Positions 3,401-64,000 of a stretch of DNA of 64,000 bases are shown here, one piece after another. The stretch's first letter is position 1; every line of letters begins with the position of its first letter. The stretch is from Candidatus Omnitrophota bacterium. Lineage in GTDB: Bacteria; Omnitrophota; Gorgyraeia; Duberdicusellales; 4484-171. Below the pieces are notes generated by a model. The model did no database searches. It was not told the DNA's origin and was given only the letters and a program-made list of their open reading frames with translations. The stretch lies in the NCBI GenBank assembly GCA_024231025.1, contig JAAEQW010000256.1:66954-130953 (forward strand). The letters are read 5' to 3'. The position numbers and the translations under genes are program-made.

Positions 3401-6400
3401 TAAGTTGATGAGCGCGTTTTATCCTTTGATTGCGATACTAGAATCTAGCGCGAAAGCATCCGAACGTAATGTATTGGCTCAGGCTGCCGCTGATGCTGCT
3501 TATTCTGCATGGGAGGATGAATTTTTAGTTTATTTGCCTAATGGAGAAGAGCACTCTAAAGTAAAGCATGAAAATGTGGTTTTGGTAGATCCAAAATTAA
3601 TGCGTGTGTTATCTTTGAGAGGTTTTAGAAATTCTTATTTCGGCATAGCCGAATTACTAAAGCTTACTTCAGGAGAATATCCAAAAGTCGGAAACAAAAA
3701 TGTTTACATCGTTGATTTTGTCGATGAAACAAAAATGGTGACAACCAGCGATGCAATTTTGATTAATCGAAAATATGCTCCCCAAGTAGACGACGAAAAG
3801 GCTCTCTATAATGTCTTGTTAAAGCTAAACAAAGAAAAAGATCGCTTTGAATATAATTATCAGGAAGCAGCCGTCCAGAGACAAGAGGATGCTGATGCAA
3901 CGTTGGATCGTAGAATTGACGCATCTGATCCGATAGTAATTCAAGCATTGGATAGCCTGCCAGATGAAAGATCTAAAGAGCATTTTTTGAGCATAGTAAA
4001 TCGGTCTGAAAATGATGCTAAATTGGTAGGATATATTATGAATCCGGCAAGTTTTGTAAGTATCTATAACAGATTAAAAAGATTTTCGTTGCATGATGCT
4101 TTTGCGCTTAATTGGTCGGAATTTTACAGTAAGATTGTATGGAACGATCTTTCAGAAGACGATGATACTTTAGATTTTATTCTTGAAAATGAACGGATTG
4201 GAAAGTTGCAAGAATATTTTTTGGCACAAAACAGGTCAGAGTTTACCATGGAGCTGCTTAATATACTCATAGGTAAAAATTTTCATCCGAACAGAGAGAA
4301 TATTTCGAGGCAAGTATTGAATGATGAATTAGATAGATTGTGGGAATTGCGCGAATTTTTGAATAAAAAAACTGTTAATCTCATCATGCGTGCGACACTT
4401 CTTGATGCCGATACTTATCAGGAATTCAGAAATAGATTGGTAGCCGATAGAGATACGGGTGGAATTAAGCTTGACGATTTAAGCCAAACAGAATGGGAAG
4501 TATTAAATAAAGTTGATTGGAATAGTTTCGATTCATCAAGTGAGATCCCTTTTCAGTTGTTTTTGGATGGTAATCTTGCAGCGGTAAGAAGAATAGCAGA
4601 AATTTCTGCGAGATTGAATCGAGCATTTATGGAAAGAAGAGCCAATATTTCACTTGCGACTAGTATGTGCAACATGCTCGATGAGGAGATCGGGAGGTTT
4701 ATTAGTAGCGGAAAGTATATTGATATAAGTGAATTAGAGATGGGCTATGGGAATGTGTTTTGTCTTCCATATTATTTTCAGTTTTTCTATGGGGATGGTT
4801 GGAGAGAAAAACTTAACGTATATTTGGAATTAGAAATGAGAGGAAGAGAAATATGGAGTCTTGAGAAAATTATGGCGTCAACCATTCCAATAGAGCAGAA
4901 AATGAGGTTATTAGAAGCAGTGATAGAAAGTGTTAGTGCTTTAGAGAGTGAAGTAGATAGTTTTTTAGAGTTTCCGTTTGAATTTGATGGCGAATTGCTT
5001 CAGGAGATAGAAAATCCAGCGTTGTTTATTCAATTTATTTCAGGTTTTCCGTTATTTGATGAAGCGTTTCTTAACAGAAAGCATTTGTCTGATCAACAGA
5101 ATGAAAGCATTCCTTTTGGATATCAATACCTCTTAAGATATGAAAAAGAAATTTTGCGTAAAATTATTACGGTCTTTCATCATGTTAGCAATTTGCCAAA
5201 TGATGAATACGTGCGGACACAAGAAGACCTCAAGCGTTACTTCAAAAAGGGTTCTGTTACCGGTCGCATCGCGCCGTATGTCCAGTATCTTTTAAATGCC
5301 CAAGATGTTAAAGATGTCGAGGGGCGAGAATTAAAAGTTACCCCACAACGTAAGTTTGCTCTTGTTGATTTGTATGATACTTATCTTGAGAATTCATCAG
5401 AGCAAGAATCTCACGAAGAAACTGCTGGCCGAAATGGAGATTTCACTAGTGTTGATCAACGCGTCAGTAGGGCCGCTCAACGATCATCTGAGAAAAGAGA
5501 TGAAGAGAGGCAAAAATTACTGAGAAATACCTTTAGAGCTGCGGCCCAACAGTCTGTTGATGATCTGGTACTGATTCGTGAGGCCATCCAAAATGTTATT
5601 GATGAAACGCCTGCCGGTGCCGACGCACAAAAAGTTTCCATTAATGTTTATCGAAAACGAGTAGCTTTAGGTGAAGAGTTAACCGTTATCGATATCCAAG
5701 ATATGATTGGTATGAATGCTGAGCGGCTTTTTAATAAACTGCTTATGCCATTTTCGAGCAGTAAAAAGGATTCTAAAAAGTTTCTTGGCAAACAAGGTCA
5801 GGGGTTTTTTACTTTGCTTGCTAACTCAGAGTATGTAATGCTTAAGACTGTAAAAGATGGTAGGGTTTGTATTTTAAAGATAACGCCGGAGAAGCTCAAT
5901 GGTCAGGTGGTTGATTTTTTTGTCAAAGAAGAGCAAAGAGACGCCTTCGCCGACGAAAGCAATGGGACTCATATCCAAGCAACTGTAAGAGCTGATTTGC
6001 CAGGTCTTGAAGCAGTGAGGGTTAGTGTTGCTGGACAAAAATATGCTGCTTTGGTTGATCCAGAAAGGTTGGCGGTAGAGATTAATGGAGAGCAGGTCAA
6101 CGCCAATAGTGGCCGCAAACTTGCCGTGGAAGAAACACGTTATGGAGATGTGGAATTTTATTCGATTTCAGGCGAATCATTTATGGCGTTGGGGGGGCCT
6201 TTTGTGAAACCCATTGATGATGATTTCATGGCTTTAGTGCCGCCGGCTCTTCGTAAAGTTCTTTTGGAAAATGGTTTTGCCGTTAATTTACCATTTCAAA
6301 ATATTAGACGTATTCAAGGCGGCAGTGATATTGCTAATAAAGAGGAGATATATGAAAACATAGAAGATCCTGTGGCTAGAGGTACTATAAAGCTTGTTAT

Positions 6401-7727
6401 CGCTATGTTTGCCCGGGGCGACATTCAGTCTTTAGGCTTGTTTGGACATGATTACTATAATTGGGCTTATAATGACCAAGCAGCAGAAGATGCTCATGCG
6501 ATCATGGATGGTTCGGCAGACATTGATGTTATGAGAGCTAGATATTTTTCTTTAGATCGATCAAATCAACTGGCAAAGTTATTACTAGCTTTACCTTTGG
6601 ATTTTCTTAATGATATTTTGGGGACACCGATGTCTATGGCTGAGCTTTTTGATAATTTTATAAGAAACAGATCGATGTTTACCGCTGAAATTATAGAAAA
6701 ATTACCACAACCTATCAAGGATGTTTTTGCGTTAATCGAAGAAAAAGAACGAAAAGAACAAACGCAACAGGAAGTTGCTAGAAATTTGGGGGTTCCTGAT
6801 GAGCTAATTAGTAGGGATTTTTCTTTACCAAACGAACAAGGGGATGGGATGGGCGCCTATTGGGCATTCATTGAAATGAGTAACCAAATTGCAAATGTTG
6901 CGTTAACAAGTATATCGAGAGAAACTCCTACCGAAACGTTTGGTGTTTTTCGAGATAGACTAGAATATTTACAAAGAAATCCCACTCAAGCAGGATATTA
7001 TGCAGAAGCAAATAGAATGTCAACGGCGCACGCACAACGGGGAGGGATATTCTATGCGTGGAATCTATTAGAACAAGGTAGATTTCTGGATTTATTTTCT
7101 CAGTATATGGGAAGGCAAATTACCCTTAATGAATTTTTAAATAAAGCATTTGAAGAGATGCTTGATACCTTAACGCATGAATTAATTCATATTCTTGAAG
7201 AGAGCGATGAAGAGACTCACAACGAAGTGTTTTTCGAACGCCAAAAGATCTTAGTTTCCGTTTTAATAGGTGAAAAAGAGAGGGTCACTGACATTCTTGA
7301 AGAGATTATAAGTAGCTCTCAATACGCTGATAATTTAGGGGATGTCTCGGTTAAAAATTTTCTTGAGCACATTGCTGGTCAACAAGGCAGCCATCGTGTT
7401 GAATTCGATAGGGTTGTTATTCCAGAACCAGAAGCAGTTGATTCACTTGAGATGTCGCCAACACCAGAAAATTCTGTTGTTTCATCTGAACTTATAAATT
7501 CGCAAAAAGAAAGCACTGGCGGTATCAATCTTGACCCTAGTGAGCTAGACTTCCAAATGCAAGGTGCAGAGTCAACAATTAAGCCATCTGTCAACTATCA
7601 CCATATTATTCAAGAAATACCGATTAACGGCTTTTCTCCAATTATTTTTCAGATTGCCCCCACTAACCTACCTCTTTTCCTCCAAAATTCGGGACACATC
7701 CCACATAACCGCCGCACTTATCTTTAA
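474..7727 (+). CDS. Giant secreted or membrane-anchored protein (2417 aa). It has two HSP90/sacsin-like GHKL ATPase modules and a C-terminal HEXXH motif. The true start may be ATG 507 (MMKKAKISF..., signal-like).
   Basis: Single 7.25-kb ORF. The N-terminal hydrophobic segment is LVCLGIVFCFLTGLGL. Bergerat-fold motifs are ITNAYDSM...SVSDDGSGMS...GRFGIGFESL (around aa 640-760) and IQNVIDE...IDIQDMIGMN...GKQGQGFFTLLANS (around aa 1700-1790). LTHELIHILEE lies near aa 2240. Confidence 0.75.
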   Translation: MGYSYVNRSRFMMKKAKISFELVCLGIVFCFLTGLGLSGLMKDIALKKVNSVAFQDNLDLPAPGAMVKQTSDFAPAKLKGIKIFPDNPLKFDFVIDCGNTNLERKELEEESAKLIKYFLASLTVPEKELWVNLSPYEANRVIPEKLGQTEMGKDLLAQDYILKQLTASLMYPEDEIGQTFWDRVYAKANELYGTSKIAVNTFHKVWIVPDKAVVYQSGDTAFIIESHLKVMLESDYLALANAESVGAASQPPAEETNDISSEVMREVILPEIEKEINSGENFANLRQIYQSLILAAWFKRNLKENSLAKVYADENKVGGVQIKDKTIKKKIYDRYVEAYKRGVYNYIKKDYDIASKKFIKRKYFSGGFEGKMDDALRVEGKSQDETAVAVRDTQKGSLETVSVTLDPVRNLDRLREKLVEIAQDKRNDLPPDASEDQIMVHIIDSLKARQSREGELIREVTKKDGTIVVEIDDTIKDELLGRAIQKEVIDRPGGVKAVNFKDSNDVWRVVGFSSELTEDQLRDELEEVRLRRDKGMNWIQAFNAVRRKFHGGKGQIDQGRAQEYAVGRRDVLSASVSAAGGKENIVAFGKIVSALRNHIGKPGSTLYEDIKGRILKGGTPIRSGDNIGNQSSVATMGTFIDEHFSLPEEAIREIITNAYDSMRSEPNPESREVQVQINNGYMSVSDDGSGMSLDTILKKFYPPFEGEKSGAVLSQIRDIINDEEADKISRIREFIKSLVLSELSDTERNSIKDVQSRLGGLTSDGGQLIKTINSLITFTGRFGIGFESLLYFVKSEEDFIEIITSTGKEAHRIKFFWVNGELQTGVDVLDPQTTAKGTKVTLQSSRFNKDNARGVVNRYLSFNSNARINVSVDGQAAEFINREVFDPMNFTHVSGDAQVEAFYSKAENTTGRSTVRINVHGVTILTKEIEGYGLPSEVIFNFPAQIGLPISRNKIQVNELFIEKAKDMLQMIAPEPKLMSAFYPLIAILESSAKASERNVLAQAAADAAYSAWEDEFLVYLPNGEEHSKVKHENVVLVDPKLMRVLSLRGFRNSYFGIAELLKLTSGEYPKVGNKNVYIVDFVDETKMVTTSDAILINRKYAPQVDDEKALYNVLLKLNKEKDRFEYNYQEAAVQRQEDADATLDRRIDASDPIVIQALDSLPDERSKEHFLSIVNRSENDAKLVGYIMNPASFVSIYNRLKRFSLHDAFALNWSEFYSKIVWNDLSEDDDTLDFILENERIGKLQEYFLAQNRSEFTMELLNILIGKNFHPNRENISRQVLNDELDRLWELREFLNKKTVNLIMRATLLDADTYQEFRNRLVADRDTGGIKLDDLSQTEWEVLNKVDWNSFDSSSEIPFQLFLDGNLAAVRRIAEISARLNRAFMERRANISLATSMCNMLDEEIGRFISSGKYIDISELEMGYGNVFCLPYYFQFFYGDGWREKLNVYLELEMRGREIWSLEKIMASTIPIEQKMRLLEAVIESVSALESEVDSFLEFPFEFDGELLQEIENPALFIQFISGFPLFDEAFLNRKHLSDQQNESIPFGYQYLLRYEKEILRKIITVFHHVSNLPNDEYVRTQEDLKRYFKKGSVTGRIAPYVQYLLNAQDVKDVEGRELKVTPQRKFALVDLYDTYLENSSEQESHEETAGRNGDFTSVDQRVSRAAQRSSEKRDEERQKLLRNTFRAAAQQSVDDLVLIREAIQNVIDETPAGADAQKVSINVYRKRVALGEELTVIDIQDMIGMNAERLFNKLLMPFSSSKKDSKKFLGKQGQGFFTLLANSEYVMLKTVKDGRVCILKITPEKLNGQVVDFFVKEEQRDAFADESNGTHIQATVRADLPGLEAVRVSVAGQKYAALVDPERLAVEINGEQVNANSGRKLAVEETRYGDVEFYSISGESFMALGGPFVKPIDDDFMALVPPALRKVLLENGFAVNLPFQNIRRIQGGSDIANKEEIYENIEDPVARGTIKLVIAMFARGDIQSLGLFGHDYYNWAYNDQAAEDAHAIMDGSADIDVMRARYFSLDRSNQLAKLLLALPLDFLNDILGTPMSMAELFDNFIRNRSMFTAEIIEKLPQPIKDVFALIEEKERKEQTQQEVARNLGVPDELISRDFSLPNEQGDGMGAYWAFIEMSNQIANVALTSISRETPTETFGVFRDRLEYLQRNPTQAGYYAEANRMSTAHAQRGGIFYAWNLLEQGRFLDLFSQYMGRQITLNEFLNKAFEEMLDTLTHELIHILEESDEETHNEVFFERQKILVSVLIGEKERVTDILEEIISSSQYADNLGDVSVKNFLEHIAGQQGSHRVEFDRVVIPEPEAVDSLEMSPTPENSVVSSELINSQKESTGGINLDPSELDFQMQGAESTIKPSVNYHHIIQEIPINGFSPIIFQIAPTNLPLFLQNSGHIPHNRRTYL
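7686..7703 (+). repeat. REP1 copy inside the 3' end of the giant gene
   Basis: AATTCGGGACACATCCCA; it encodes ...NSGHIPH in the giant ORF tail. Confidence 0.7.
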
Positions 7728-10580: not shown

Positions 10581-12023
10581 ATGGAAAAAGAAAGAAACGA
10601 CTGGATAAAGTCAAGTTATCTGCTTAGGATGTTTAATCTTTCCTTCGCGGTTTTTACAATGCTTCCGATGCTTGTGTTTCTGTATCTTTTTTCTAAATAT
10701 AATGGTAGTGATGCGATTGCGATCAGCAAGAGCCACTTATCTTCGTTGGTTAGCATTATCGCGGTGGCTTCTCTTTTGCTATTTGTGTTGCTGGGAAAAT
10801 TACTAAGAAAAATAACCATTCTTACCTATGGAATGAGAAAGGCTCTGTTCGGCAAGATAGACACTGACGTTATTTCTAAATTAGCAAAAGAAGATGGCGA
10901 AGTAGCTCAGTTGGCGCAAAGTTTTGAAGATATTATGATGCGTCTTGAAGACAACATAAAAGATCTTCAGGAAACCAAAAAAACACTTCACGACGTTCTT
11001 TCAAAAGTAGGCAAAGCGTTAACCTCAATGGAGAACTTTGATCTTTTGATTAATCTTATTTTAGAAACCGCAATTGATGCTCTGGGCTCTGTAAAGGGAG
11101 CTATTTTTTCTTTAGAAGGTGGCAAAGATTTTAAGCTAAAAGCTGCTGTAGGGTTGGATAGTATCTCTCAAAGAGAAATGCTTGAGAACGTAAAACCCTT
11201 AATGGACGAAACCATTCGTGGTCAGGAGAGCATAATTGATTCTGAGGCCGGGTCTTGCGGTCAGCAGTTGTTTCCACGGCCGCTGGTGTCTACGCCATTA
11301 GTTTGCCATCAAAAAACACAAGGGGTGATTATTCTAAGCGGTAAAAAGAAGGAAGGCAACTTCACCGAAGATGAGCTAACCATGTTAGCTAATCTAAGTT
11401 ATCAAGTTGCAATATCTTTTGAGAATGCCGCACTTAGCAAAGATGTTGAAAAAACGTATTTTGAAACAATGGCCGCATTAGCCTTAGCGGTTGAGGCAAA
11501 AGACTCTTATTCGCGAGGGCACTCTGAAAGAGTTGGCGATTATGCCGTAAAGATAGCACAAGAGCTCACAATGAAGGAAAAAGAAATTACAACTTTAAAA
11601 GATGCTTCTCGGCTCCATGATATTGGAAAAATTGGCATTGCTGATAAGATTCTCAATAAGAATGATGCGCTGTCTTCTGAGGAAAAAGATATCATGAGAA
11701 AACATTCTCTAATAGGAGAAAGCATTGTTTATCCGCTTAAGACATTTTCTCATTTGTTAGAGCCAATACGCCATCATCACGAATTTCTAGATGGTACTGG
11801 TTACCCTGACGGGGTATCCGGTGATAAGTTGCCTTTGGTGACTAGGGTTTTAACTGTTGCAGATATCTTTGATGCACTGTCAAGCGATCGCGTATATCGA
11901 AAGGCTTTGGGTATAAATAAAATTGTAGACGAACTTAAAGAAATGGTAGCTCAGGGCAAGCTTGACGGTAAAGTAGTGGACGCGCTTGCTAAAGTAGTGG
12001 GCGATAAGAAAATAAAATTGTAG
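10581..12023 (+). CDS. Membrane-anchored GAF / HD-GYP c-di-GMP phosphodiesterase
   Basis: N-terminal TM segments, a HAMP-like linker, HDIGKIG (HD) and HHHEFLDGTGYPDG (GYP). Confidence 0.85.
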   Translation: MEKERNDWIKSSYLLRMFNLSFAVFTMLPMLVFLYLFSKYNGSDAIAISKSHLSSLVSIIAVASLLLFVLLGKLLRKITILTYGMRKALFGKIDTDVISKLAKEDGEVAQLAQSFEDIMMRLEDNIKDLQETKKTLHDVLSKVGKALTSMENFDLLINLILETAIDALGSVKGAIFSLEGGKDFKLKAAVGLDSISQREMLENVKPLMDETIRGQESIIDSEAGSCGQQLFPRPLVSTPLVCHQKTQGVIILSGKKKEGNFTEDELTMLANLSYQVAISFENAALSKDVEKTYFETMAALALAVEAKDSYSRGHSERVGDYAVKIAQELTMKEKEITTLKDASRLHDIGKIGIADKILNKNDALSSEEKDIMRKHSLIGESIVYPLKTFSHLLEPIRHHHEFLDGTGYPDGVSGDKLPLVTRVLTVADIFDALSSDRVYRKALGINKIVDELKEMVAQGKLDGKVVDALAKVVGDKKIKL

Positions 12024-39014: not shown

Positions 39015-39150
39015 GGGGGCGGCGAAAAGGCAATCTTAAACTCGCCCTAGAGTTTAAGCGCGCAAAGCCACGGGTCCTATAAGGGCAAAAGATCAGGACG
39101 GCCGGGCTACCGAAGGTCTCTTAGAGGCGAGGTGGGCCGGTTTTTGTATT
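39015..39150 (+). promoter_or_regulatory. c-di-GMP-I (GEMM) riboswitch-like leader, copy 1, upstream of the pilin operon
   Basis: GGCAA..P1 stem-loop..CGCGCAAAGCCACGGGTCC..GGCCGGGCTACCGAA matches the Vc2 core (GGGCAAACC-P1-GACGCAAAGCC-P2-GCGGGGUUACCGA). A promoter-like TTGCTT..TATATT lies upstream. Confidence 0.65.
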
Positions 39151-54280: not shown

Positions 54281-54496
54281 TACGTATAATCTATGATTTA
54301 TTATTATCAAGAAAACATTTGTAGATTGTTCTGTTATAATGGGTTATGGATTGAAATGTCCAAAAATGATAGGAATTTTCACACTTTTTTCGGACACTCT
54401 TTTCAGGGGTTTTTGCGCTTTTTTTGGACACCCTTTATTGGAGGTATCTTGAAGAATGGCGTCTTTATATATTAAGAATTTATAAGTTAAATAGTG

Positions 54497-54527
54497 TTGA
54501 CATTTTACTCATAAAAATGTTATATTT
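54497..54527 (+). promoter_or_regulatory. Sigma-70-like promoter (TTGACA, 17-bp spacer, TTATAT) driving riboswitch copy 2
   Basis: TTGACA at 54497-54502 and TTATAT at 54520-54525. Confidence 0.5.
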
Positions 54528-54532
54528 GTATG

Positions 54533-54615
54533 GTAGCGAAGGGCAAACCTCGAGTAATCGAGTGGCGCAAAGCCACGGGCCCCGAATGTTTTGGGGCAGC
54601 CGGGTTGTGGGTATC
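54533..54615 (+). promoter_or_regulatory. c-di-GMP-I (GEMM) riboswitch-like leader, copy 2, upstream of the 2102-aa gene
   Basis: AGGGCAAACC-TCGAGTAATCGAG (P1 with a GUAA loop) - GGCGCAAAGCC - ACGGGCCCC..GGGGCAGCCGGGTT. Confidence 0.65.
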
Positions 54616-54652
54616 AAAAGTAGTTGAGTAGTTTGTTTTTAACATTAAAGTT

Positions 54653-57600
54653 ATGAAACAAAAAAGTAATAAAATGGGGAGTGGGGATAGGGGGAGGTTT
54701 TTAAACTTTTCTCTTAGCTCGTTTAAAGGTAAGAAAATAGTGAGTGCGATAGTCGCACTCATTTTTTTATTTAACGTCTGTACCCCTGCGTATGCTTGGC
54801 GTGACGGTAATCATAGCCATACAACTAGCGCTGCAGCTTTTGGTGGCGGAGCGCTCGGCGGACTCGTAACCGGTGTTTTTATTTTGATCGGTAATGGTGG
54901 CCTAACCAGTTGGGGATCGGTAGTTGCCGGTGCTGCGTCTGATATAACCGGAGCGATCATGTACTACGAAAGTTATGACACCTACGATGAGACGATGACC
55001 ATTGGCGGGGAAGAGCTTGATTGGAGTCTTGGCAAAGTTGACATAACGATTACTAAAGGTCAGTTTTGGAGTATGACTGCCGGAATAATTGCTGGCTGTA
55101 TAGTTGGTGTTGTCGGCGGTGTTGCTTCAGGAGTGAAAACCGCAGCCGCTGAAGCAGCTAAAGAAGGCGTGAAAGAAATATCGAGTGAGGCGATCAAAGA
55201 AGTCACAAAAACCGCAACTGACATTGCAGTAGAGACAATGAAGAATGTAGTTGTCGGATCGATGATTGGTGCCGTGGCCGGTGCCGCCGGAGGCGCGATA
55301 GTTGGGGCAATTAGCGATGGTAAGGAAGGCGCCCTTAAAGGCTTGGGAAAAGGTGCTGTTCTTGGTGCCGCGGCGGGGGCAGGCGGTGCGTTACTAACTG
55401 GTGTTTTGAGAGGTATTGAAAAGGTGCTTGCTTCAACGATGGGCGATTCTCTTGCCGGTACGATTGCTGAGAACGTTATTAATCATACTTTGCGCAACGC
55501 TTTAATTAAGCTTCCGGTTGACTTTGCTTGTGCTTTTGGAGCGCTAGTAGTTTCTCGTACCGTTGAAGAAGTGCTAGTTCAAAAACACGACATGGATCGA
55601 ACCCTTGCCGGGATGATTGGTGGCGTTGCCGGAATGGGGGCGCGTTTTCTTACCCAGCCGGTATTAATGCAAACGTGGACCCAGAACAATTATTACATGA
55701 GCAACCGAGGCATTGTGCTTAGCGCAGGTGAGAAAAAGCGACTGGACATGGTTGCGAATTTTAAAAAGACCCTCAAGAAATCCAAGGATAAAATCGAAGT
55801 TGGTCAAATTGACGCCAAAACCGGAGAAGTAACCCAAAGTAAGACCATTAGCGTCTCTCGTCTTGCTGATGCAAAATATATAGGTAGTGGAGTGTTTCAA
55901 TTGGAAAATGGAAGTCAAGTTGACATTAATTCTAACGGCATGAGGGGGTTATCTCCTGAAATAATGAAAGCGGTGAAGGGTTATGCCAACATAGTTGCGA
56001 GGGTGGATCCTTCAATGAGAATAACCGGCGACGTTGCGCGCACCTTTGGCGGAGGCGCGGTGCAGGATTCGTTTTTTGCTCCGATTCATTCGGTGGTGAG
56101 CGTTGGGCCGCGACCGATTATTTCAACAGCAACACAAGTTGCGATATTATATGCTTTGGATTATAAGACGTTTTACGGCCGGGGTGATTCAGAACGCGGC
56201 AAAAAGAAAAATTATCGCAATGCGCTTAAGATGGCGCTTGCGCGCAGCGCAGGTTCGCTTGCTGGTGAGCTGTCGACAGGTTGGTTAACGCAAGCTTATA
56301 ATCCTTGGAGTTCAAGGCCGCAAGATATGGCGGGTTTTAAAGGTTGGGCGCAACATACCGGCAGGGCGGTTGCGGTGGAAAGCGGCGGACTGCTAGCTGA
56401 CGTTGCTTTTGCTCGGATGACTTACGCTTGGAATTTAAATACTGCCTATGGCCTTCAAGGCCTGGTGCATTTGGGAATGAGTAGTCTTGTTGGTGGAACA
56501 TTGGATACCTTATTTAGAGAAGATCGAATGAAAGCCGAGAAAACAGTTTTCGTTGAGGTTAAAGATGAGCCCGAATACGTTGATGAAAAAAAACTTGTTA
56601 AGAAAGAGCCCGAAACGCTCAGCGAAGAAGAACACCGAGAAAGATATAGTGCCGCAAGAGGTTGGGAGCCCGATGAAAACGCGACTAAGCCATCAAAGGG
56701 TATCTACGTTTATACAAACACTAAAACCGATGAAACAAAAACTTATAAAAAGCAGCACAGCGTGGTGGATGTTCCTAAAGGCTATGAATCGGCCTATTCG
56801 AAGGCAAGCGTTGGCGCGCCACGAGTGGATATTTTCTTTATTTGTGTAGGAATGGATTTTGCTAATAACTTCAAAGAAGCATCAATTAACGCGGCACTGA
56901 TGCCTTATCCGTATCGTTCAACCGGCACTGGAATGGGGGCAATGGCCGCAAATTTTGAAAATCAAGATCGGTTTACTCGTCGCATAGCAATGCATATGCG
57001 CGGGGTTGGCCCAGTTCAAGCAAGGGCAATCGAGGCGGGCCAGGCTCTAAGCGGCCAGGCACGGGGACGTTTTGCTAATAGTTTCGGTTATTCAATTGCT
57101 AATACATGGCTTCCGTATCGGTACCAATCTTACGCGGCATTTATGCCGGACGTTGACGCGCACTTAGATGAAAACGTTTCTACGCCGGGTAGAGAATCTG
57201 AAAAGCTCTATAAGGATCGTAAGGAAACGAAAGAACAGCGCCAAAAAGTAAGACAAGAAACTCAGGAAGTAGAGAAAAAAATAGCAACAATTGAACTCTC
57301 CAACTTAGATAAAAAAAGTGATGATACTTTAGTTGCGTTACAAAAACGTTTAATTGAGCTAAAGGTACAAGATAAAGCATTGGGGAATAAACTTGCCCAA
57401 AATAAAAAAGATATTCAAAATCTCCGTACCAAAACGGTCAATGCGTACGGTGATTTGTCGCCAATATATTTTAATGGCGGGATCGTGAATTATTCAGTTG
57501 ACCGGCGTATCTCTGATTATGCGGTGGTAAGAGAATCAATTCAGTTTACCGGCGAAAGATCCGCTGAAGAAAAAGAAAACGCAATGATTCACAACGAAGA

Positions 57601-60600
57601 TCCTTCGCAATATAGATCAATTGAGGTAGAGGCAAAAGCAACGCTAGAGAGGGCGGGTGATGATGAGGAAATTGAAATATCTTCTTTTCAAGGAACGTAT
57701 AATCCTTCATTGGCCGGCCGACCGTTGGCAGTTGAGCACTACAGCACACAATTATCACATGGCGTTAGTGTTAATAACTTAGCCGGTGCTCTTGAAGGCG
57801 CTGAGCATCCGTTGATTGTGGGTGATGGCCTTACCATAACTAAGCCCGATCAACTTGATGAGGCTAAAAACAGGCTTTATGATATTATGGCAGACGATCC
57901 GGACGCGCCGATATATTATAAGGAGTTAAAAGCAGAGAAAGACTTAAACGATCAGGTAGTCGAGAAGCGGGCACAAGAGCAAGTTAAAGGTGCGAAAGCT
58001 TCAACTGAGAAAGTTAAGCCGATAATCCTGGTTACCGACAAGAAAAAGCGAGCCATCGCCGAAGAGATGACGGGTATTGTTGAGCGGCTTAATGGCGCGG
58101 TAAAGGGTGACGAAAACGCGAAACGTAATTTCGGTTCGGGTTTAATTGGCGTAATGGCCCTAAGAAGACAGGGTAATTCTTATTATCGGGCAACATGGGT
58201 TTTGGGTGAGGGCGATGAAAAGAAAGCAAAAGTTGCCAGAGTAATCGATGATTTAGGGGTTAGCCGTGGCGGTGGTATAAAATTGCAACATTCAGATAAG
58301 CCGTCTTTAACTGCCCGCACCACACGCGATATTTACGGCAGAAGTATTGAAACAAAAGAATACGGTTGGCATTATGATGTGAAAGAAGAAGAGATTGGGG
58401 TAAGTGATCCTCAAAGTAAAAGAAAGCCGGGTACAACAACACCTGAGAAGAAAAAAGTATCGGGTAACGGCGGGTATCGCCTTGTATCCCGTGATTTAGA
58501 AGGTGATGATAAGGTGTTAAAAGTCACTAAGCACGTTTATAAGGATTCGAAAGAAGCAAGAGAGGCTGCGATTGAGCTCAGTAAAAAGATGCCTAATTGG
58601 CATATTCAAATATACGAGAACGACGAAATTGCCGAAATCGAAGACGACAAGTTTCTTTTGGTTGAGGATTCCCCGGAACATTCTTTGATTGCGGCCATTT
58701 CGCCAGAAGCCGCGGCGGCAGGCCTAATCCCTTCTAAAATTCCTGATGATTATAAAATAAGAGCAGCTTATCCAAGAACCGAGACCACCGGAACCTGGAA
58801 AAACGTTGAAGTAGCAACCACCGAATACTATTATGGGCCGATGGGCCAGGCGATGTCAATAAGAAGCGAGGATCCAATAAAGTCACAACGCCGCAAAAAA
58901 GATTATAGTGCGGCGAATATAGTTGACGTTAGGCAATTAACTTTGCGTAAGCACGAGGATGAGACCGGGGCAATTAGAAAAGTAGAGCTCATCGAGAATG
59001 TTGATGGTGAGGAAAAAGTATTAAGTGAATTTAGAGGGAAAGAGGGAGAAAATCCTTTTGATGAAGCAGTAGCGTATGCGGCTACGCTCCAAAGCCCTGA
59101 TCCTACGATGGAGACAGTAGATTATGATTCGACAGGCGATCAACATTATATTGTGATGCGTGATCCAAAGACACAAAAGATAACTGGATTTGCCACGAAA
59201 GATTCTTATGCTAAGCATAAGGACGCATACGCTAAAGCCAATGAGCTTATTGATGGGCTTCTCCAAGGAGGTGGCGATGAAGCTTTACCTAAGGATACGA
59301 TTTTTGAAATATACATGGCTCATGAAATAGGTAAAACCAAAGACGGTCAACTGGTTATTTTAGATGATGAAGCAAGCGATGCCGCTTTGGCAGAAGCGCC
59401 AGTTGGAAAATATGCTTTGAAACCAAGCAGCCTTACCGGCAGAAAAGCGCCTAGTCAGGGGCCGGATGATCACAGCCCCGACGCGGTTGATTTTGGCAAG
59501 GCAACAGTTCAAGCGGCATCTGTTGCTAAAGGTGATGACCCGAACGTTACCTATGCGATAAGCATTTACGACACAAAAAGTGATCTTGAGTTTGTTAAGT
59601 CGTTAGGTGATGGCGGCTGGACGCGTTCGCCGTATGTTGGCGGTCCTAGCGGGCGATTAATTGCCCAAGACATACACCATGGTCCGCAGCTCTTATCAAA
59701 AAACGTACCGTATAATCCTAACATGCCCAGCAACCTTTTAAAAGTTGTGCGGATACATCTTGAAAATAGATTTCTCCAAGAAGCCGGCTTAAAAGAATTG
59801 GCAGTTGATGACATAGACGTTGACACAGAAGAAATTGTTGATGAGATGTATGATCGATTTGTTAAGAAAGCGCCGAAGTTTAAAGATCGGGTACTTGATG
59901 TGCGAGGCGCCAAAGGCAATAAGGAAGAGGCTTATAGCAAAGTAATGAGCAATTCGAATTACAATTTAGGCAAAATAGCTAACGAAACGTATAATGAAGT
60001 AGTTAATGAGCGCTTTAAAAGGGCGGGCCTAAACGATCAGGCTTGGAATACAATGATGCAAAGGCCAATAACAAGAATGGAGAGTTTTCAGTTTTTTGAA
60101 AATAAAAATATTGCCGGCAAAACATATTCGCTTCCAACCTGGGGCGCTAAGGCGGGGTATAATGCCGCTCGTCGTCCCAATAGGGATGTGGTTTATGATG
60201 CCCTAAGGCCGAATACAATGTTAAGCGCAACCGAAGATTATGTGCTACAATATGACGCAGGCGATCGGGTGATTGACATAACTGTTGTAGCCGGTGAAAC
60301 CATTGAAGATGCCTTAGCTAGAGAGGATATTTTTGTGTCACGCAAAGAGTATACCGCAAGCAAAGATGGGCGCAAATTTGCCGTTAATAAAGATAAAACT
60401 TTCAATGAGGCTGAGTATGAGGAAACCGGATTTTTATCGAAGCCTAAAGAGCGTAACATTGTGCTTGGCGGCGACAAAGCGATAAGGGTTGGACCGTCTC
60501 AGAGCCCACAAGAAGCCTTGAAAGAGCACGAGATAATCGGCACAACTTTTATTAGTGAAGAGGATTTTGTAAATAGAGTTGTTGCGCCTAATGAGGAGAT

Positions 60601-60961
60601 GTTTACTGTGATGGTTGATGGCGAACTGCCAAGCAGTGCTGATGGTGGAATGCGCTTTGTGAAGAGTAGTTTCTATGATTATCGTCCCGAACAAGTAAGA
60701 GCTGCTCATGCTCAACGCATCGAAGCGGCTAAAAAGCGTGGCGATAGCGCGGCGCTCAATTATTGGAAGAGCTCGGCGGTGATAGATGTTGATGGAGTAG
60801 CAATGGTGGTTGAACCCGGTGAAGCCGGGGTTAACCCAATGTATCGCTATGAAATTCAAACCTTATTCGACGATTACATGGATACAATGATTGGCATAAC
60901 CCGTAGTGGTGCAGGAACTGGACCAACGATACAGATGCGGCCGAATGGGATCGGAAAATAG
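54653..60961 (+). CDS. Giant membrane-anchored protein (2102 aa). The N-terminus carries Gly/Ala-rich glycine-zipper-like hydrophobic segments; a coiled-coil region lies mid-protein.
   Basis: Single 6.3-kb ORF. Segments such as GGGALGGLVTGVFILIGNGG and IGAVAGAAGGAIVGAI; no recognisable enzymatic motif. Confidence 0.75.
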   Translation: MKQKSNKMGSGDRGRFLNFSLSSFKGKKIVSAIVALIFLFNVCTPAYAWRDGNHSHTTSAAAFGGGALGGLVTGVFILIGNGGLTSWGSVVAGAASDITGAIMYYESYDTYDETMTIGGEELDWSLGKVDITITKGQFWSMTAGIIAGCIVGVVGGVASGVKTAAAEAAKEGVKEISSEAIKEVTKTATDIAVETMKNVVVGSMIGAVAGAAGGAIVGAISDGKEGALKGLGKGAVLGAAAGAGGALLTGVLRGIEKVLASTMGDSLAGTIAENVINHTLRNALIKLPVDFACAFGALVVSRTVEEVLVQKHDMDRTLAGMIGGVAGMGARFLTQPVLMQTWTQNNYYMSNRGIVLSAGEKKRLDMVANFKKTLKKSKDKIEVGQIDAKTGEVTQSKTISVSRLADAKYIGSGVFQLENGSQVDINSNGMRGLSPEIMKAVKGYANIVARVDPSMRITGDVARTFGGGAVQDSFFAPIHSVVSVGPRPIISTATQVAILYALDYKTFYGRGDSERGKKKNYRNALKMALARSAGSLAGELSTGWLTQAYNPWSSRPQDMAGFKGWAQHTGRAVAVESGGLLADVAFARMTYAWNLNTAYGLQGLVHLGMSSLVGGTLDTLFREDRMKAEKTVFVEVKDEPEYVDEKKLVKKEPETLSEEEHRERYSAARGWEPDENATKPSKGIYVYTNTKTDETKTYKKQHSVVDVPKGYESAYSKASVGAPRVDIFFICVGMDFANNFKEASINAALMPYPYRSTGTGMGAMAANFENQDRFTRRIAMHMRGVGPVQARAIEAGQALSGQARGRFANSFGYSIANTWLPYRYQSYAAFMPDVDAHLDENVSTPGRESEKLYKDRKETKEQRQKVRQETQEVEKKIATIELSNLDKKSDDTLVALQKRLIELKVQDKALGNKLAQNKKDIQNLRTKTVNAYGDLSPIYFNGGIVNYSVDRRISDYAVVRESIQFTGERSAEEKENAMIHNEDPSQYRSIEVEAKATLERAGDDEEIEISSFQGTYNPSLAGRPLAVEHYSTQLSHGVSVNNLAGALEGAEHPLIVGDGLTITKPDQLDEAKNRLYDIMADDPDAPIYYKELKAEKDLNDQVVEKRAQEQVKGAKASTEKVKPIILVTDKKKRAIAEEMTGIVERLNGAVKGDENAKRNFGSGLIGVMALRRQGNSYYRATWVLGEGDEKKAKVARVIDDLGVSRGGGIKLQHSDKPSLTARTTRDIYGRSIETKEYGWHYDVKEEEIGVSDPQSKRKPGTTTPEKKKVSGNGGYRLVSRDLEGDDKVLKVTKHVYKDSKEAREAAIELSKKMPNWHIQIYENDEIAEIEDDKFLLVEDSPEHSLIAAISPEAAAAGLIPSKIPDDYKIRAAYPRTETTGTWKNVEVATTEYYYGPMGQAMSIRSEDPIKSQRRKKDYSAANIVDVRQLTLRKHEDETGAIRKVELIENVDGEEKVLSEFRGKEGENPFDEAVAYAATLQSPDPTMETVDYDSTGDQHYIVMRDPKTQKITGFATKDSYAKHKDAYAKANELIDGLLQGGGDEALPKDTIFEIYMAHEIGKTKDGQLVILDDEASDAALAEAPVGKYALKPSSLTGRKAPSQGPDDHSPDAVDFGKATVQAASVAKGDDPNVTYAISIYDTKSDLEFVKSLGDGGWTRSPYVGGPSGRLIAQDIHHGPQLLSKNVPYNPNMPSNLLKVVRIHLENRFLQEAGLKELAVDDIDVDTEEIVDEMYDRFVKKAPKFKDRVLDVRGAKGNKEEAYSKVMSNSNYNLGKIANETYNEVVNERFKRAGLNDQAWNTMMQRPITRMESFQFFENKNIAGKTYSLPTWGAKAGYNAARRPNRDVVYDALRPNTMLSATEDYVLQYDAGDRVIDITVVAGETIEDALAREDIFVSRKEYTASKDGRKFAVNKDKTFNEAEYEETGFLSKPKERNIVLGGDKAIRVGPSQSPQEALKEHEIIGTTFISEEDFVNRVVAPNEEMFTVMVDGELPSSADGGMRFVKSSFYDYRPEQVRAAHAQRIEAAKKRGDSAALNYWKSSAVIDVDGVAMVVEPGEAGVNPMYRYEIQTLFDDYMDTMIGITRSGAGTGPTIQMRPNGIGK

Positions 60962-61089
60962 ATGCATAGTTCAAATAAAGAGAGCATAAGTGATTGATTG
61001 TCAAATAGTTATGAGACGAAATGTCCTTTTTTATAAAAAGATGTAAATTTACTTGTTTTTTACTAATATAAGTGTTATAAATGGGTGAA

Positions 61090-61249
61090 GTACGAAAAGG
61101 CAAACCCCGAGTGATCGGGGGGCGCAAAGCCACGGGTCCTGAAGTTAGGTGTATTCTCGCAGATTGCCTAAGGGTGATCTGTCTGTGCACATTTAGTTTG
61201 ACGATAGCCGGGTTACCGAATATTATTGATATTTAGTAACCCGGTTTTC
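61090..61249 (+). promoter_or_regulatory. c-di-GMP-I (GEMM) riboswitch-like element, copy 3, ending in an intrinsic terminator
   Basis: AGGCAAACC-CCGAGTGATCGGGG (P1 with a GUGA GNRA loop) - GGCGCAAAGCC - ACGGGTCC..AGCCGGGTTACCGAA. Terminator CCGGGTTAC..GTAACCCGG plus TTTT at 61208-61249. Confidence 0.7.
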
Positions 61250-61428
61250 ATTTTTCCGCCTTAAGCGGGAAAATGACCCTGAGCACCTCGACCTTGCTCG
61301 GCATAAACTCCGTCGAAGGGTCTTGAGACTTGGTTTCTAAGCGATTGAAACTAAGATTAAAGCGGTTGTGGTAATAGTGTTTTTTGATTGTAGATAGCGG
61401 AAAGTGGAAAAAAGACGTTAAAATCGGC

Positions 61429-61460
61429 GGAAAATGCTTTTGAAAGCATTTTCATTTTTT
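61429..61460 (+). terminator. Intrinsic terminator hairpin GAAAATGCTTT-TGA-AAGCATTTTC plus ATTTTTT
   Basis: 11-bp stem followed by a T-run, between the duplicated riboswitch units. Confidence 0.5.
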
Positions 61461-61524
61461 GCCAAAAAAACGTCTTTTTGGCTTGCTTTCACTTATCTAT
61501 AAATGTTATATATGTATTGCAGAC

Positions 61525-61678
61525 AGCGGTACGAAAAGGCAAACCTCGAGTGATCGGGGGGCGCAAAACCACGGGTCCCAAAATTACGGTTAAAGTAAGA
61601 AATAGCTTTTGGCTGGATTTTGCATTAGGGATAGCCGGGTTACCGAATATTATTGATATTTAGTAACCCGGTTTTTTA
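61525..61678 (+). promoter_or_regulatory. c-di-GMP-I (GEMM) riboswitch-like element, copy 4, with a terminator-type expression platform
   Basis: Same core as copy 3 (GCAAACCTCGAGTGATCGGGGGGCGCAAAACCACGGGTCC). Terminator 61635-61678. Confidence 0.7.
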
Positions 61679-61802
61679 ATGAGACTTGCATTCTGGTAGT
61701 TCAGAATGCGTAGCCGAATTAATCCCGTTTTACGGGATAAGTGAGACTTGGTTTCTAAGCGATTGAAATTGAGATTACAACGATTCGACGATTGTGACTG
61801 CT

Positions 61803-64000
61803 ATGAGAGAAAAACTTAACAATAGAGCGAACTGTGGGGGAAAGGGGGAGGTTTTGAGCCTCTCAATTCCGTTAAAAGAAGAGAACCTCAAAGTTTCCGT
61901 ATCCTTCAAACAGGACACTCCCAACCCCGATGAACCGTACGTAAGCGCTTGGCAAAAGTTTAAAAAGTCACCGCTTTTTAAAGTTGTTGCTTTCACGGTG
62001 CTGTTTATTTTTGTTTTTGAAGACATAACTCGTGCCGCTGGTTTAAGCGCGCCAATTATTCCTGTTCAATCATCTCCAATGATGATGGCTAGCGCTCCTT
62101 TGCCGTTGCGCTTGCTGCCTTTGGTTCATGCTTCTTTTGAAGACGGGGACAGTTCGGGCTGGTCGGCAGTCAACGATTACCAAGATTTTCAAACAACTCC
62201 CTACAGCTACGATGTTTCAATGAGCGGATACCAAATGCAATCTAATAATTTGAGTGCTCAGGACCTGCAACATTCCGAGAATATTCCGCTGGGAGTTACT
62301 TACACCACCCATGGTGCTAATGGTCAGGTTGAATGGATGGGTCAAAGCGTTGCTGGAAAACAGATAATTAACACCTACACCGCTGCTGATGGTCTTGAAA
62401 GGACCACCGGCATAAACATATATTATGACGACCCGGCTAGTATCCAGCAGGATGGTGGCGTGGTTACTTCGGCTCGTTTAGGCGAAGTTTTAATGACACC
62501 TGAGGGCGGCGAAGTCAAAATTGGTTTTAGCGGAAACAGTTATTGGAAGTCTGAAGACGGTGCGCAAGGCTCTACCGCGTTTAAGGTGTCTAAAGAGGAC
62601 GGAGCAGCAACGTTATGGATCGCAGAAAATGGTGGGCTCAGATTTCATGGTAAGCCAACGCAGGACTCTTTTTACCAAATGGATCACAGCGCGATTCGTG
62701 GTGGTGATTTTTCTAGTGCGCCGACTACTTCGTGGAACGCGATCATGGATACGGTTCGCAATCCTGATCCGATAAGAAAACAAGGTGGCGGTTACACCCC
62801 CCATAGCGGTGCTGATCACATTTCAACATTTTCTGTTGTACCGGTTGCCGGTCAAGATGGTAGCGGATTGCAACACATGATTCCGTTTCAAACGAAAGAG
62901 ATGGATAAGTCGGTAATGGCAATTGATATTACCGATGCCGGAGTAACCGTTGGTGCCGGTAGCACGATTGGTTGGGGTTATGGCCCTGGAAAGTCGGTAA
63001 ACGTGGTAGATAATTTTGGCTTTAGGACCAAAGGCGTGGGGATAAAAAACGGGATTGTTGACGGCTCTGTTAGTTTTCATCCGCAAGCAATGCCGGGGCA
63101 GTCTTTGGTTATGCAGACACATAATTTAACCGCGATTAACACCGGTAGAAGTGACCTTTCCTGGGTTGCACGTACTTATGAGACAAATGCTTCCGGCGGT
63201 TTTAGTGATACAACAGCGTACGTTGAATTGGAGGATCACTTTAGCATTGATTCGAACATTGACGGAGCGCTTTATGTGAAAGACTTAAATAAGGCAGCAA
63301 GGGGAGGACAGTCGAATTACGGTGATATTATAAGTAAGAGATTTGATACAAACCAAGTTGGTCATTTGAAAATCACCGAATTTAAAGCAGATACTCAAGG
63401 GTATATGCGGGCAATCGTTGGTCGAGAAGGCCAATACATTGGTGCTCAGGGGATAGATGTAATGCAAAACCGAGTCGGACTCACCGGAGCTGTTAACCGT
63501 GAAGCCGAATACAATAAAACAACGGATATTCTGGATGCGCCAGCGGTGGCTACTTTTGGGAATCTAACCAACAATACCGGTTCATTTGCGGCTAATGACC
63601 CTGACGAATATATAACGTTTACTCCTTATGCTAAATCGCTTGCCCTTGAAGACGGAGCGAAAATTACCTTGCTGGATCCAATTGGTGATGACGCCGATAA
63701 AATTCATTTTATGAACCTAACGGCAAAAGATAACCATGGTTTTATTGACGGTGATCTTATAACTATTGATTACCGTGCCGATAGCGGGATTAGATTAGAA
63801 AATAGTAACACGAGGAGAGAGCTGGTTAATTTTAGAGACATTAATCACGTGGTAACAGTTATCAACCGAGATGTTACGGAGTTGCAGGGGTTTTCTTCAA
63901 TTAAGGTGGGGGCCGAATTTACGCTTTTGAATAACTTAGTTGACGGCGAAGTTGAATATGGAGAAGTTATTAACGCGCCGGTGCACGAAATTGGCAAAAC
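61803..64000 (+). CDS. Large secreted or membrane-anchored protein, 5' partial; it continues beyond the window and is absent from the ORF track
   Basis: ATG 61803 opens a frame with no stop through 64000 (more than 730 codons). There is a signal-anchor VVAFTVLFIFVF, and it lies downstream of riboswitch copy 4. Confidence 0.6.
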   Translation, partial: MREKLNNRANCGGKGEVLSLSIPLKEENLKVSVSFKQDTPNPDEPYVSAWQKFKKSPLFKVVAFTVLFIFVFEDITRAAGLSAPIIPVQSSPMMMASAPLPLRLLPLVHASFEDGDSSGWSAVNDYQDFQTTPYSYDVSMSGYQMQSNNLSAQDLQHSENIPLGVTYTTHGANGQVEWMGQSVAGKQIINTYTAADGLERTTGINIYYDDPASIQQDGGVVTSARLGEVLMTPEGGEVKIGFSGNSYWKSEDGAQGSTAFKVSKEDGAATLWIAENGGLRFHGKPTQDSFYQMDHSAIRGGDFSSAPTTSWNAIMDTVRNPDPIRKQGGGYTPHSGADHISTFSVVPVAGQDGSGLQHMIPFQTKEMDKSVMAIDITDAGVTVGAGSTIGWGYGPGKSVNVVDNFGFRTKGVGIKNGIVDGSVSFHPQAMPGQSLVMQTHNLTAINTGRSDLSWVARTYETNASGGFSDTTAYVELEDHFSIDSNIDGALYVKDLNKAARGGQSNYGDIISKRFDTNQVGHLKITEFKADTQGYMRAIVGREGQYIGAQGIDVMQNRVGLTGAVNREAEYNKTTDILDAPAVATFGNLTNNTGSFAANDPDEYITFTPYAKSLALEDGAKITLLDPIGDDADKIHFMNLTAKDNHGFIDGDLITIDYRADSGIRLENSNTRRELVNFRDINHVVTVINRDVTELQGFSSIKVGAEFTLLNNLVDGEVEYGEVINAPVHEIGK

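Follow-up and report, generated by a model that had tools for sequence, protein, structure and literature searches.

A c-di-GMP-I-class aptamer before a giant membrane-protein gene of an Omnitrophota bacterium: a possible rewired paralogue with translational OFF logic

The DNA described here is a stretch of 64,000 nucleotides (nt) from contig JAAEQW010000256.1 of a Candidatus Omnitrophota bacterium, referred to throughout, at its full length, as the window. Our subject is the leader of an open reading frame (ORF) for a giant membrane protein of 2102 amino acids (aa), in which lies the second of four aptamers of the type I cyclic di-GMP (c-di-GMP) class (copies 1 to 4 in window order; Table 1). 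Genes for Rotamase_2, RcpC/CpaB, a secretin and a TadZ-TadA-like ATPase precede copy 1; approximately seven Flp-type pilins, a TadE/G-like protein and two T2SS-F (TadB/C) proteins follow it; and beyond these come PsbP-like and DAGK proteins, a UbiA gene on the minus strand, copy 2 with the gene for the 2102-aa protein, copies 3 and 4, and an ORF that runs off the window. One paper (10.1101/2023.11.21.568195) sets out a ‘secretion system before giant gene’ locus of Omnitrophota comprising rotamase, RcpC, secretin, ATPase, class-III pilins, TadB/C and the giant gene, and in gene order the window is the canonical locus of this kind. A GAF-HD-GYP protein encoded at 10581-12023 shows that genes for c-di-GMP turnover are also present. 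One of the searched papers on Omnitrophota giant genes mentions PilZ and GGDEF links; the word ‘riboswitch’ is absent from all of them (10.1101/2023.11.21.568195 included), and within that set cyclic-dinucleotide aptamers on an Omnitrophota giant-gene locus appear to be unreported.

Table 1. Coordinates of the features discussed; positions refer to the window unless the contig of a syntenic relative (L018-L020) is named.
Feature	Position	Strand	Details
Aptamer copy 1	39019-39114	+	42.5 bits
Sigma-70-type promoter of copy 2	54497-54526	+	TTGACA, 18-nt spacer, TG-n-TATATT (extended -10)
c-di-GMP-I-class aptamer (copy 2)	54532-54615	+	RF01051 57.7 bits, E 1.1e-8 (match 54532-54612); RF03168 62.2 bits
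Pocket positions of copy 2	G20 = 54542; A47 = 54569; ‘92’ = U at 54608	+	From Rfam alignments
Aptamer 5' strand	54539-54553	+	AAGGGCAAACCUCGA; J1/1a including G20, and 5' arm of P1a; predicted partner of the switching segment
U-rich switching segment	54624-54640	+	UUGAGUAGUUUGUUUUU; predicted to pair with 54539-54553 or, via 54632-54643, with the start-codon region
Predicted start-codon-sequestering hairpin	54632-54662	+	54632-54643 with 54650-54662; loop AUUAAA; AUG (54653-54655) in stem
ORF of giant membrane protein	54653-60961	+	2102 aa; NCBI hypothetical protein GY858_06150, Candidatus Omnitrophica metagenome-assembled genome
Intrinsic-terminator-like element	54739-54772	+	A-tract, 11-bp stem and 3-nt loop (54739-54763), then UUUUUUUAUUU
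Aptamer copy 3	61090-61221	+	59.8 bits
Aptamer copy 4	61528-61647	+	59.6 bits
Aptamers before very large ORFs of relatives	L018 11053-11146; L019 14386-14514; L020 12628-12756
TGTCCA/TGGACA motif	54365-54372, 54427-54432, 61022-61027; L019 2869; L020 2825; L018 10569

Scanning the whole window at Rfam gathering thresholds (35 bits for RF01051) returned four matches of the c-di-GMP-I clan, all on the plus strand, and copy 2 matched RF01051 (c-di-GMP-I) over the full model, positions 1-87. A scan by local E-value scored it higher against RF03168 (c-di-GMP-I-UAU), with a value that nonetheless lies below the threshold of 65.9 bits for that family. All modelled pairs in P1a and P2, 14 of them in P2, are canonical or G-U. 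P1a reads CUCGA-GUAA-UCGAG and carries a GNRA tetraloop, P2 is a hairpin with a short G-C-rich tip, and the site at which the tetraloop would dock is a plain G-C helix rather than an 11-nt receptor; both the GUAA loop and the continuous G-C helix agree with the RF03168 consensus. Given the two Rfam scores, the canonical pairing and this fit to RF03168, the element is almost certainly a genuine riboswitch aptamer of the c-di-GMP-I (GEMM-I) class. A possible P1 joins GGUA (54532-35) to UAUC (54612-15) through G54532-C54615, G-U, U-A and A-U pairs, with an internal loop and C54537 opposite G54609/10. The aptamer lies in the 5' untranslated region (UTR), on the strand of the gene and downstream of its promoter, with 38-41 nt separating its end from the ATG at 54653, in keeping with an earlier note on this DNA, drawn from the sequence alone, which had described a GEMM-like element ending about 40 nt before the ORF.

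The promoter combines TTGACA (54497-54502) with a -10 hexamer TATATT (54521-54526) across an 18-nt spacer, matching the consensus at 11 of 12 positions and adding the TG of an extended -10. The earlier note had proposed a near-consensus sigma-70 promoter, and in this it was right, as it was in the choice of TTGACA; its -10 element, TTATAT at 17-nt spacing (54520-25), agrees with TATAAT at only three of six positions and gives way to the TG-n-TATATT layout. Sites scoring at least 11/12 number seven on both strands of the window (against 2.5 ± 1.4 in shuffles), and among them the promoter of copy 2 alone bears the TG. Stronger evidence than the consensus match comes from three syntenic loci of unrelated samples, L018 (Logan SRR22388041), L019 (JGI 3300031712) and L020 (ENA ERZ27245409), in which the orthologous gene is preceded, in the corresponding position, by TTGAC[A/T], an A-rich spacer, TA[T/C]ATT and then tgt[a/t]tGG. 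The predicted transcription start, at approximately 54532-54533, is the first base of the aptamer, and it is with the aptamer that the mRNA encoding the 2102-aa protein is predicted to begin. A further motif, TGTCCA/TGGACA, some copies of which form inverted repeats around A/T-rich spacers, is found repeatedly ahead of promoters of riboswitch-controlled genes across these loci and could be an operator for a locus-specific regulator.

In the numbering of Vc2, the aptamer of the Vibrio cholerae tfoY leader, G20 reads one guanine of c-di-GMP by its Hoogsteen edge and C92 pairs with the other. Copy 2 departs from the usual G20/A47/C92 set, with U at position 92 and G at 93, and as a G-A-U hybrid it satisfies neither variant definition, lacking the U20 of the UAU class and the A20 of cyclic GMP-AMP (cGAMP) sensors. 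We know of no established ligand for the UAU class (RF03168). Scanning 185,579 species genomes for CGCAAAGCCACGGG...AGCCGGGTTGT recovered 17 loci with G91-U92 (L001-L017), all with G20 and a tail of GUUGUCGAA or GUUGUCGG, distributed over eight or more phyla and including Geobacter, Alicyclobacillus, Shewanella, Alteromonas, Planctomycetes, Armatimonadetes, Myxococcales and two Omnitrophota; several carry ordinary terminators or Shine-Dalgarno platforms. To judge from this distribution, G20/A47/U92 is a rare but recurrent natural variant of the pocket and, by analogy, that of copy 2 is probably functional, with weaker affinity for c-di-GMP or a shifted specificity. One of the surveyed aptamers, that of Geobacter hydrogenophilus, occurs twice, upstream of a secreted subtilase with Ig domains.

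What such a pocket would bind matters for the logic of the locus, as G20/A47/U92 might sense 3'3'-cGAMP, with its G read by G20 and its A paired to U92, or might require much higher c-di-GMP than copies 1, 3 and 4, in either case supplying a second input or a second threshold. Positions 20 and 92 are the two base-specific contacts, and their substitution is known to be consequential: G20A converts the GEMM-I scaffold into a cGAMP sensor, the double mutant G20A/C92U binds c-di-AMP (PDB 3MUV), and C92U in Vc2 lowers the c-di-GMP response whilst leaving a partial one (10.1101/617340). The recurrence of G20/U92 in nature points the same way. It is worth noting however, that no binding data were found for natural G20/U92 aptamers, that no cGAMP synthase was seen among the annotated proteins of the window, and that it would be simpler to expect a G-U wobble with c-di-GMP. 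A change of signal or of threshold along these lines is considered improbable.

Comparison with the other three aptamers bears on where copy 2 came from. In copies 1, 3 and 4 the aptamer is overlapped by a terminator, which borrows its 5' arm from the P2/P1 3' strand of that aptamer and ends in a U-run, and because of this overlap they are read as ON-type transcriptional switches. Copy 1 (39019-39145 with its terminator, CCGGGCUACC...GGUGGGCCGGUUUUU) precedes the pilin genes, whose products carry class III signal peptides, together with TadE/G and TadB/C, so placed that the Tad pilin operon appears to be induced by c-di-GMP. Copies 3 and 4 precede the very large ORF at the window's edge and constitute a tandem duplication of a whole unit of promoter, aptamer, terminator and 5'-UTR segment (61040-61480 versus 61480-61800), in which each copy has its own TG-n-TATAxx promoter and the UTR segment GAGACTTGGTTTCTAAGCGATTGAAA... 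recurs at approximately 61326 and 61745. Over its 5' half (GGUA to CACGGG), the identity of copy 2 reaches 88% with copy 4 and 85% with copy 3; with copy 1 it is 64%, and with the aptamers of the syntenic loci 75-79%. Its distal P2 is a short, clean hairpin in place of the long insert of copies 3 and 4, and its linker UUGAGUAGUUUGUUUUUAAC can be aligned with UUUAGUAACCCGGUUUUUUAAU, which in copy 4 makes up the 3' strand of the terminator together with its U-tract. From the 88% identity and the linker alignment we infer that copy 2 is a lineage-specific paralogue, a unit of the copy-3/4 type having been duplicated into the 5' UTR of the membrane-protein gene and its terminator subsequently lost.

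The syntenic relatives are consistent with so local an origin. All three have an opposite-strand gene (UbiA-type, or encoding 460-490 aa), the giant membrane protein and then a further large ORF, of 12,946 aa in L018, 19,762 aa in L019 and cut by the contig end in L020. Before this last ORF stands in each case a single c-di-GMP-I aptamer (versus the tandem copies 3 and 4 of the window) with its own promoter and an overlapping, ON-type terminator. Before the membrane-protein gene, no aptamer was found in any of the three, even at E <= 1 in Rfam, and the leaders there are only some 25-70 nt long. Riboswitch control of the very large gene is thus conserved and copy 2 specific to the lineage of the window; since three syntenic orthologues have no aptamer before the gene, such control is not a property of the membrane-protein family. 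A possible degenerate remnant in the L020 leader (GAAAAGCAA...CACAAAGG) is suggestive by eye but gives no Rfam match at E <= 1. Searches for a second copy of the leader were equally unproductive: a metagenome scan for its ...GGGTTGTGG tail returned nothing, a protein-guided metagenome scan found only the known JGI contig, and a profile search of 5.8 billion proteins gave no new family members, with the window's own protein absent from the contig index. As a matter of labelling, the aptamers at 61090-61221 and in L018-L020 are assigned by Rfam, just above threshold, to RF03167 (c-di-GMP-I-GGC); they have A, not G, at the variant-defining position (GCGC-A-AAG) and an ordinary G20/A47/C92 pocket, and the label is best read as a product of competition between related Rfam models.

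If copy 2 has lost its terminator, another output has to be sought. No terminator-like site was found between 54612 and the ATG at 54653, as the earlier note had already remarked, and the run UUUGUUUUU that lies there was rejected as a terminator for want of a usable hairpin ahead of it. The note had suggested instead that regulation acts on translation through sequestration of the ribosome-binding site, to be looked for by folding. Folding does reveal an alternative pairing that reaches the start codon, which together with the Rfam match keeps that proposal alive; the sequestered part is the AUG and its A-rich flank, not a Shine-Dalgarno sequence. A G-rich run at 54675-54697 (GGGGAGUGGGGAUAGGGGGAGG) was dismissed as a true Shine-Dalgarno or regulatory element, having no start codon at a workable distance and encoding a conserved peptide motif.

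Two mutually exclusive partners compete for the U-rich switching segment. In transcripts of 114 nt and 189 nt the minimum-energy fold pairs it with the 5' strand of the aptamer, and the hairpin that buries the AUG is present in the centroid fold. The anti-aptamer duplex, at -14.3 kcal/mol, compares with -6.6 ± 1.9 across dinucleotide-shuffled linkers, of which 3 in 1000 equal it, and the AUG hairpin, at -6.8 kcal/mol, with -3.4 ± 1.8 (42 of 1000 as stable). When the transcript is folded incrementally, the aptamer hairpins are the minimum-energy fold up to 54625; by 54645 a 15-bp helix of AAGGGCAAACCUCGA with UUGAG..GUUUGUUUUU prevails (-40.0 versus -32.9 kcal/mol); and at 54670 the AUG-burying hairpin is nearly isoenergetic (-40.5 kcal/mol). 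Without ligand, the anti-aptamer state is some 6 kcal/mol better than native aptamer plus hairpin (-40.0 versus -34.2), a gap that, on these modelled energies, nanomolar ligand binding could pay. Opening the region from -12 to +15 around the AUG costs 2.9 kcal/mol unconstrained, 1.8 with the anti-aptamer helix enforced and 7.5 with the native aptamer enforced in imitation of the bound state; it is from this rise to 7.5 kcal/mol that a translational OFF switch is predicted. Without ligand, the switching segment would hold the ligand-binding 5' strand of the aptamer, leaving the A/U-rich start region open and translation on; with a cyclic dinucleotide bound, that strand would be locked in the aptamer and the freed U-rich segment would pair with 54650-54662, burying the AUG. 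Control at the level of translation is slightly favoured by this modelling, and the OFF polarity is held more tentatively, at a little under even odds. As a whole, the best explanation for copy 2 is that of a lineage-specific, rewired paralogue acting as a translational OFF switch, to which we assign a probability of roughly 45%. Its polarity would most likely be opposite both to that of its three ON-type neighbours and to that implied by the earlier note, which had envisaged a c-di-GMP-gated adhesin; the predicted logic does not favour a surface protein induced by c-di-GMP.

Several observations weigh against this explanation. On the side of the aptamer, P1 is irregular and short; the 3' tail past CCGGGUU (GUGGGUAUC) is unrelated to that of the paralogues (ACCGAAUAU); and U92, as already described for Vc2 (10.1101/617340), weakens c-di-GMP binding. 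On the side of the platform, there is no Shine-Dalgarno sequence before 54653; the orthologous genes likewise lack a strong one, and other genes here carry GGAGGTGA. The AUG hairpin is weak and marginal against shuffles, and in unconstrained ensembles it is mostly formed anyway, the start A and G being unpaired with probabilities of 0.14-0.30, versus 0.14 under constraint, such that the predicted dynamic range would depend on kinetics and on competition with the ribosome. The ViennaRNA energies ignore both tertiary structure and ligand, an OFF-type copy 2 is the odd one out among three ON-type neighbours, and the leader is known as a single sequence, so that the mutual exclusion of aptamer and alternative helix is seen in silico for that one sequence.

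The company that copy 2 keeps raises the question of whether it might instead be an ON switch or a stabiliser, with the bound aptamer hiding the 5' end of the transcript in P1 (GGUA/UAUC) and protecting the 6.3-kb mRNA from 5'-end-dependent decay, or otherwise raising expression; at high c-di-GMP, expression of the gene for the 2102-aa protein would in that case rise together with that of the Tad pilins and its very large neighbour. The aptamer does begin at the predicted +1, its three neighbours and the three aptamers before very large ORFs in the syntenic loci are all ON-type, and the Vc2 aptamer is reported to control RNA stability in response to c-di-GMP (10.1101/617340). However, no structural element predicts ON, the sole significant alternative pairing would make the start codon accessible upon unfolding of the aptamer, and P1 is short and irregular, leaving an ON switch or stabiliser unlikely.

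The orthologues, which do without an aptamer, lend themselves to a plainer account, in which copy 2 is a decaying relic: a recent duplicate of copy 3 or 4 that landed between promoter and gene, lost its terminator and the C92/P1 3' strand, and regulates nothing, its complementarities being by-products of the U-rich decay of the old terminator. The unrelated tail, the loss of pocket C92 and of the C93 pair, the alignment of the linker with a mutated terminator strand and the marginal significance of the AUG hairpin would all follow from decay. Yet the bit score is on a par with those of intact copies (57.7 versus 59.6) and P2 has been shortened cleanly with every pair kept. G91-U92 is, moreover, the minority state shared by the 17 surveyed aptamers on normal platforms in at least eight phyla, two of them in Omnitrophota, as well as the consensus of RF03168, and the complementarity to the aptamer 5' strand is equalled by just 3 of 1000 shuffles. 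Decay is regarded as a poor bet next to the translational OFF switch, which retains our preference.

A second, more speculative step may reinforce that OFF switch. Lying 86 nt into the ORF, across codons 29-40 of the signal/anchor segment, an intrinsic-terminator-like hairpin of -15.2 kcal/mol ends in U7 and, being palindromic, is terminator-like on the minus strand also. Folding of the 57-nt region gives -19.3 kcal/mol; of 5000 synonymous recodings sampled from the codon usage of the window, 4995 are no more stable. Judged by eye, the element is alone among the terminator-like matches of the window in being a regular single hairpin, directly followed by a U-run, that lies within an ORF and on its sense strand. 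No comparable hairpin was found at that place in the three orthologous genes. Without a ribosome trailing the polymerase, the hairpin could fold and end transcription early, ahead of most of the 6.3-kb gene. Direct pairing of the aptamer with this element as an antiterminator was rejected, with only five contiguous pairs (GAGUG/CACUC) on inspection by eye. Coupling of translational OFF control to intragenic termination is doubtful. A combined version is less probable still: the G20/A47/U92 pocket would shift threshold or ligand (e.g. 3'3'-cGAMP via a U92-A pair), the output would have flipped from transcriptional ON to translational OFF, and a ribosome-sensitive intrinsic terminator in the signal-peptide codons would back it up. 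Were it true, expression of the membrane protein would run counter to that of the Tad pili and of the very large protein, all in a single Omnitrophota giant-gene locus.

The protein under this putative control is identical to a hypothetical protein of a Candidatus Omnitrophica metagenome-assembled genome. Its hydropathy profile shows a signal/anchor at residues 29-47 and approximately five Gly/Ala-rich, glycine-zipper-like hydrophobic segments up to residue 301, followed by some 1800 hydrophilic, charged residues free of Cys, for which hydropathy is ambiguous as to the side of the membrane. ORF length and hydrophobic segments thus support the earlier description of a giant membrane protein of 2102 aa. 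Its N-terminus recurs in two further proteins, P0004 (MKNKTT...) and P0005 (MKQNQ...), where KIISAILVLVFLVNIC...RDGN...GGAIGG follows; because these N-termini are homologous, the ATG at 54653 is supported as the start, and because the hydrophobic N-terminal segment is shared it is taken as a conserved signal/anchor. No Pfam domain was found at E <= 0.01, and a HMMER search with the C-terminal 1200 aa against 1.84 billion representatives returned only four relatives (1223-3686 aa, E 1e-14 to 1e-20), to which word-index searches added neither further relatives nor a named homologue. AlphaFold2, given the conserved C-terminal 464 aa and a five-sequence alignment, produced an unusable model (pLDDT, the predicted per-residue confidence score, of 41.6). 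The adhesin or biofilm-matrix role suggested by the earlier note finds no evidence either way: no adhesin repeats or domains were recognised with Pfam at E <= 0.01, no homologue is named, and hydropathy does not establish an extracellular location for the large hydrophilic part. At the N-terminus, a motif G[DG][KR]G[EGR][VAF]L situated some 10-20 residues past the start is common to the very large proteins of the four loci; the 2102-aa protein has it too (GDRGRFL), in this genome only, with an RNA-level form GGGGAnAGGGGGAGG at 54683-54700 and 61836-61853 of the window.

Two features elsewhere in the window deserve brief mention. A 20-nt palindrome, GGGCACAGCNNGCTGTGCCC, has five intergenic copies (22952, 47449, 47656, 53906 and 54260) where none is expected by chance; the copies look like REP-type repeats (those of the repetitive extragenic palindromic kind) or bidirectional terminators, and two of them flank a small-ORF region just upstream of the copy-2 promoter. 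At 474-7727, a 2417-aa ORF with two HATPase_c-type domains adjoins an IS200-like transposase and constitutes a second very long gene, unrelated to copy 2.

Aptamers of the c-di-GMP-I class are common, and a single match would be ordinary; the value of this one lies in its context. Four such aptamers stand at the starts of transcription units in a giant-gene locus, and in other samples one of them is kept ahead of ORFs of 12,946 and 19,762 aa, so that these leaders provide a concrete and testable regulatory input for genes that are otherwise out of reach in uncultured bacteria. Copy 2 itself represents a natural duplicated riboswitch with an apparent change of both pocket base and output, and as such is useful for understanding the evolution of riboswitch logic and of ligand threshold.

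Among known systems, the closest in fold is Vc2 (RF01051), with which copy 2 shares the core GGCAAAC, CGCAAAGCCACGG and AGCCGGG, the bases G20 and A47, a GNRA loop on P1a, a place in the 5' UTR and the absence of a working terminator before the gene. Vc2 is reported as an OFF switch (10.1101/617340), in support of the OFF reading of copy 2. It differs from copy 2 in having C at both positions 92 and 93 (U and G in copy 2) and in pairing a GAAA loop with an 11-nt receptor where copy 2 has GUAA and a plain G-C helix; the irregular P1 of copy 2, its Omnitrophota host and its regulated gene, an orphan giant membrane protein, are further points of difference. The best-scoring Rfam model, RF03168 (c-di-GMP-I-UAU), shares U92 with the G91 tail (UGU), the GUAA tetraloop and a short continuous P2, whereas copy 2 falls short of its threshold and has G20 in place of U20. 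In the GEMM-Ib 3'3'-cGAMP riboswitches of Geobacter (e.g. Gs1761), a single pocket substitution on the same scaffold shifts specificity, by G20 to A with C92 kept, whereas copy 2 keeps G20 and changes position 92. The remaining aptamers of the window and those of L018-L020 are of the same class and promoter style (TG-n-TATAxx), and differ in their overlapping terminators and ON-type reading, whereas copy 2, despite a 5' half so close to copies 3 and 4, has no such terminator and seems to work at the start codon. A comparison may also be drawn with translational riboswitches in which the OFF state ends transcription within the ORF, through Rho-dependent polarity in Escherichia coli ribB and thiM and Salmonella mgtA, and with ribosome-coupled attenuation as in pyrBI. 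The logic proposed here would be the same, in that an untranslated leader lets a terminator in the early coding region act; the candidate in the gene behind copy 2 differs in being an intrinsic hairpin with a U-tract in codons 29-40, rather than a Rho site or a leader-peptide attenuator.

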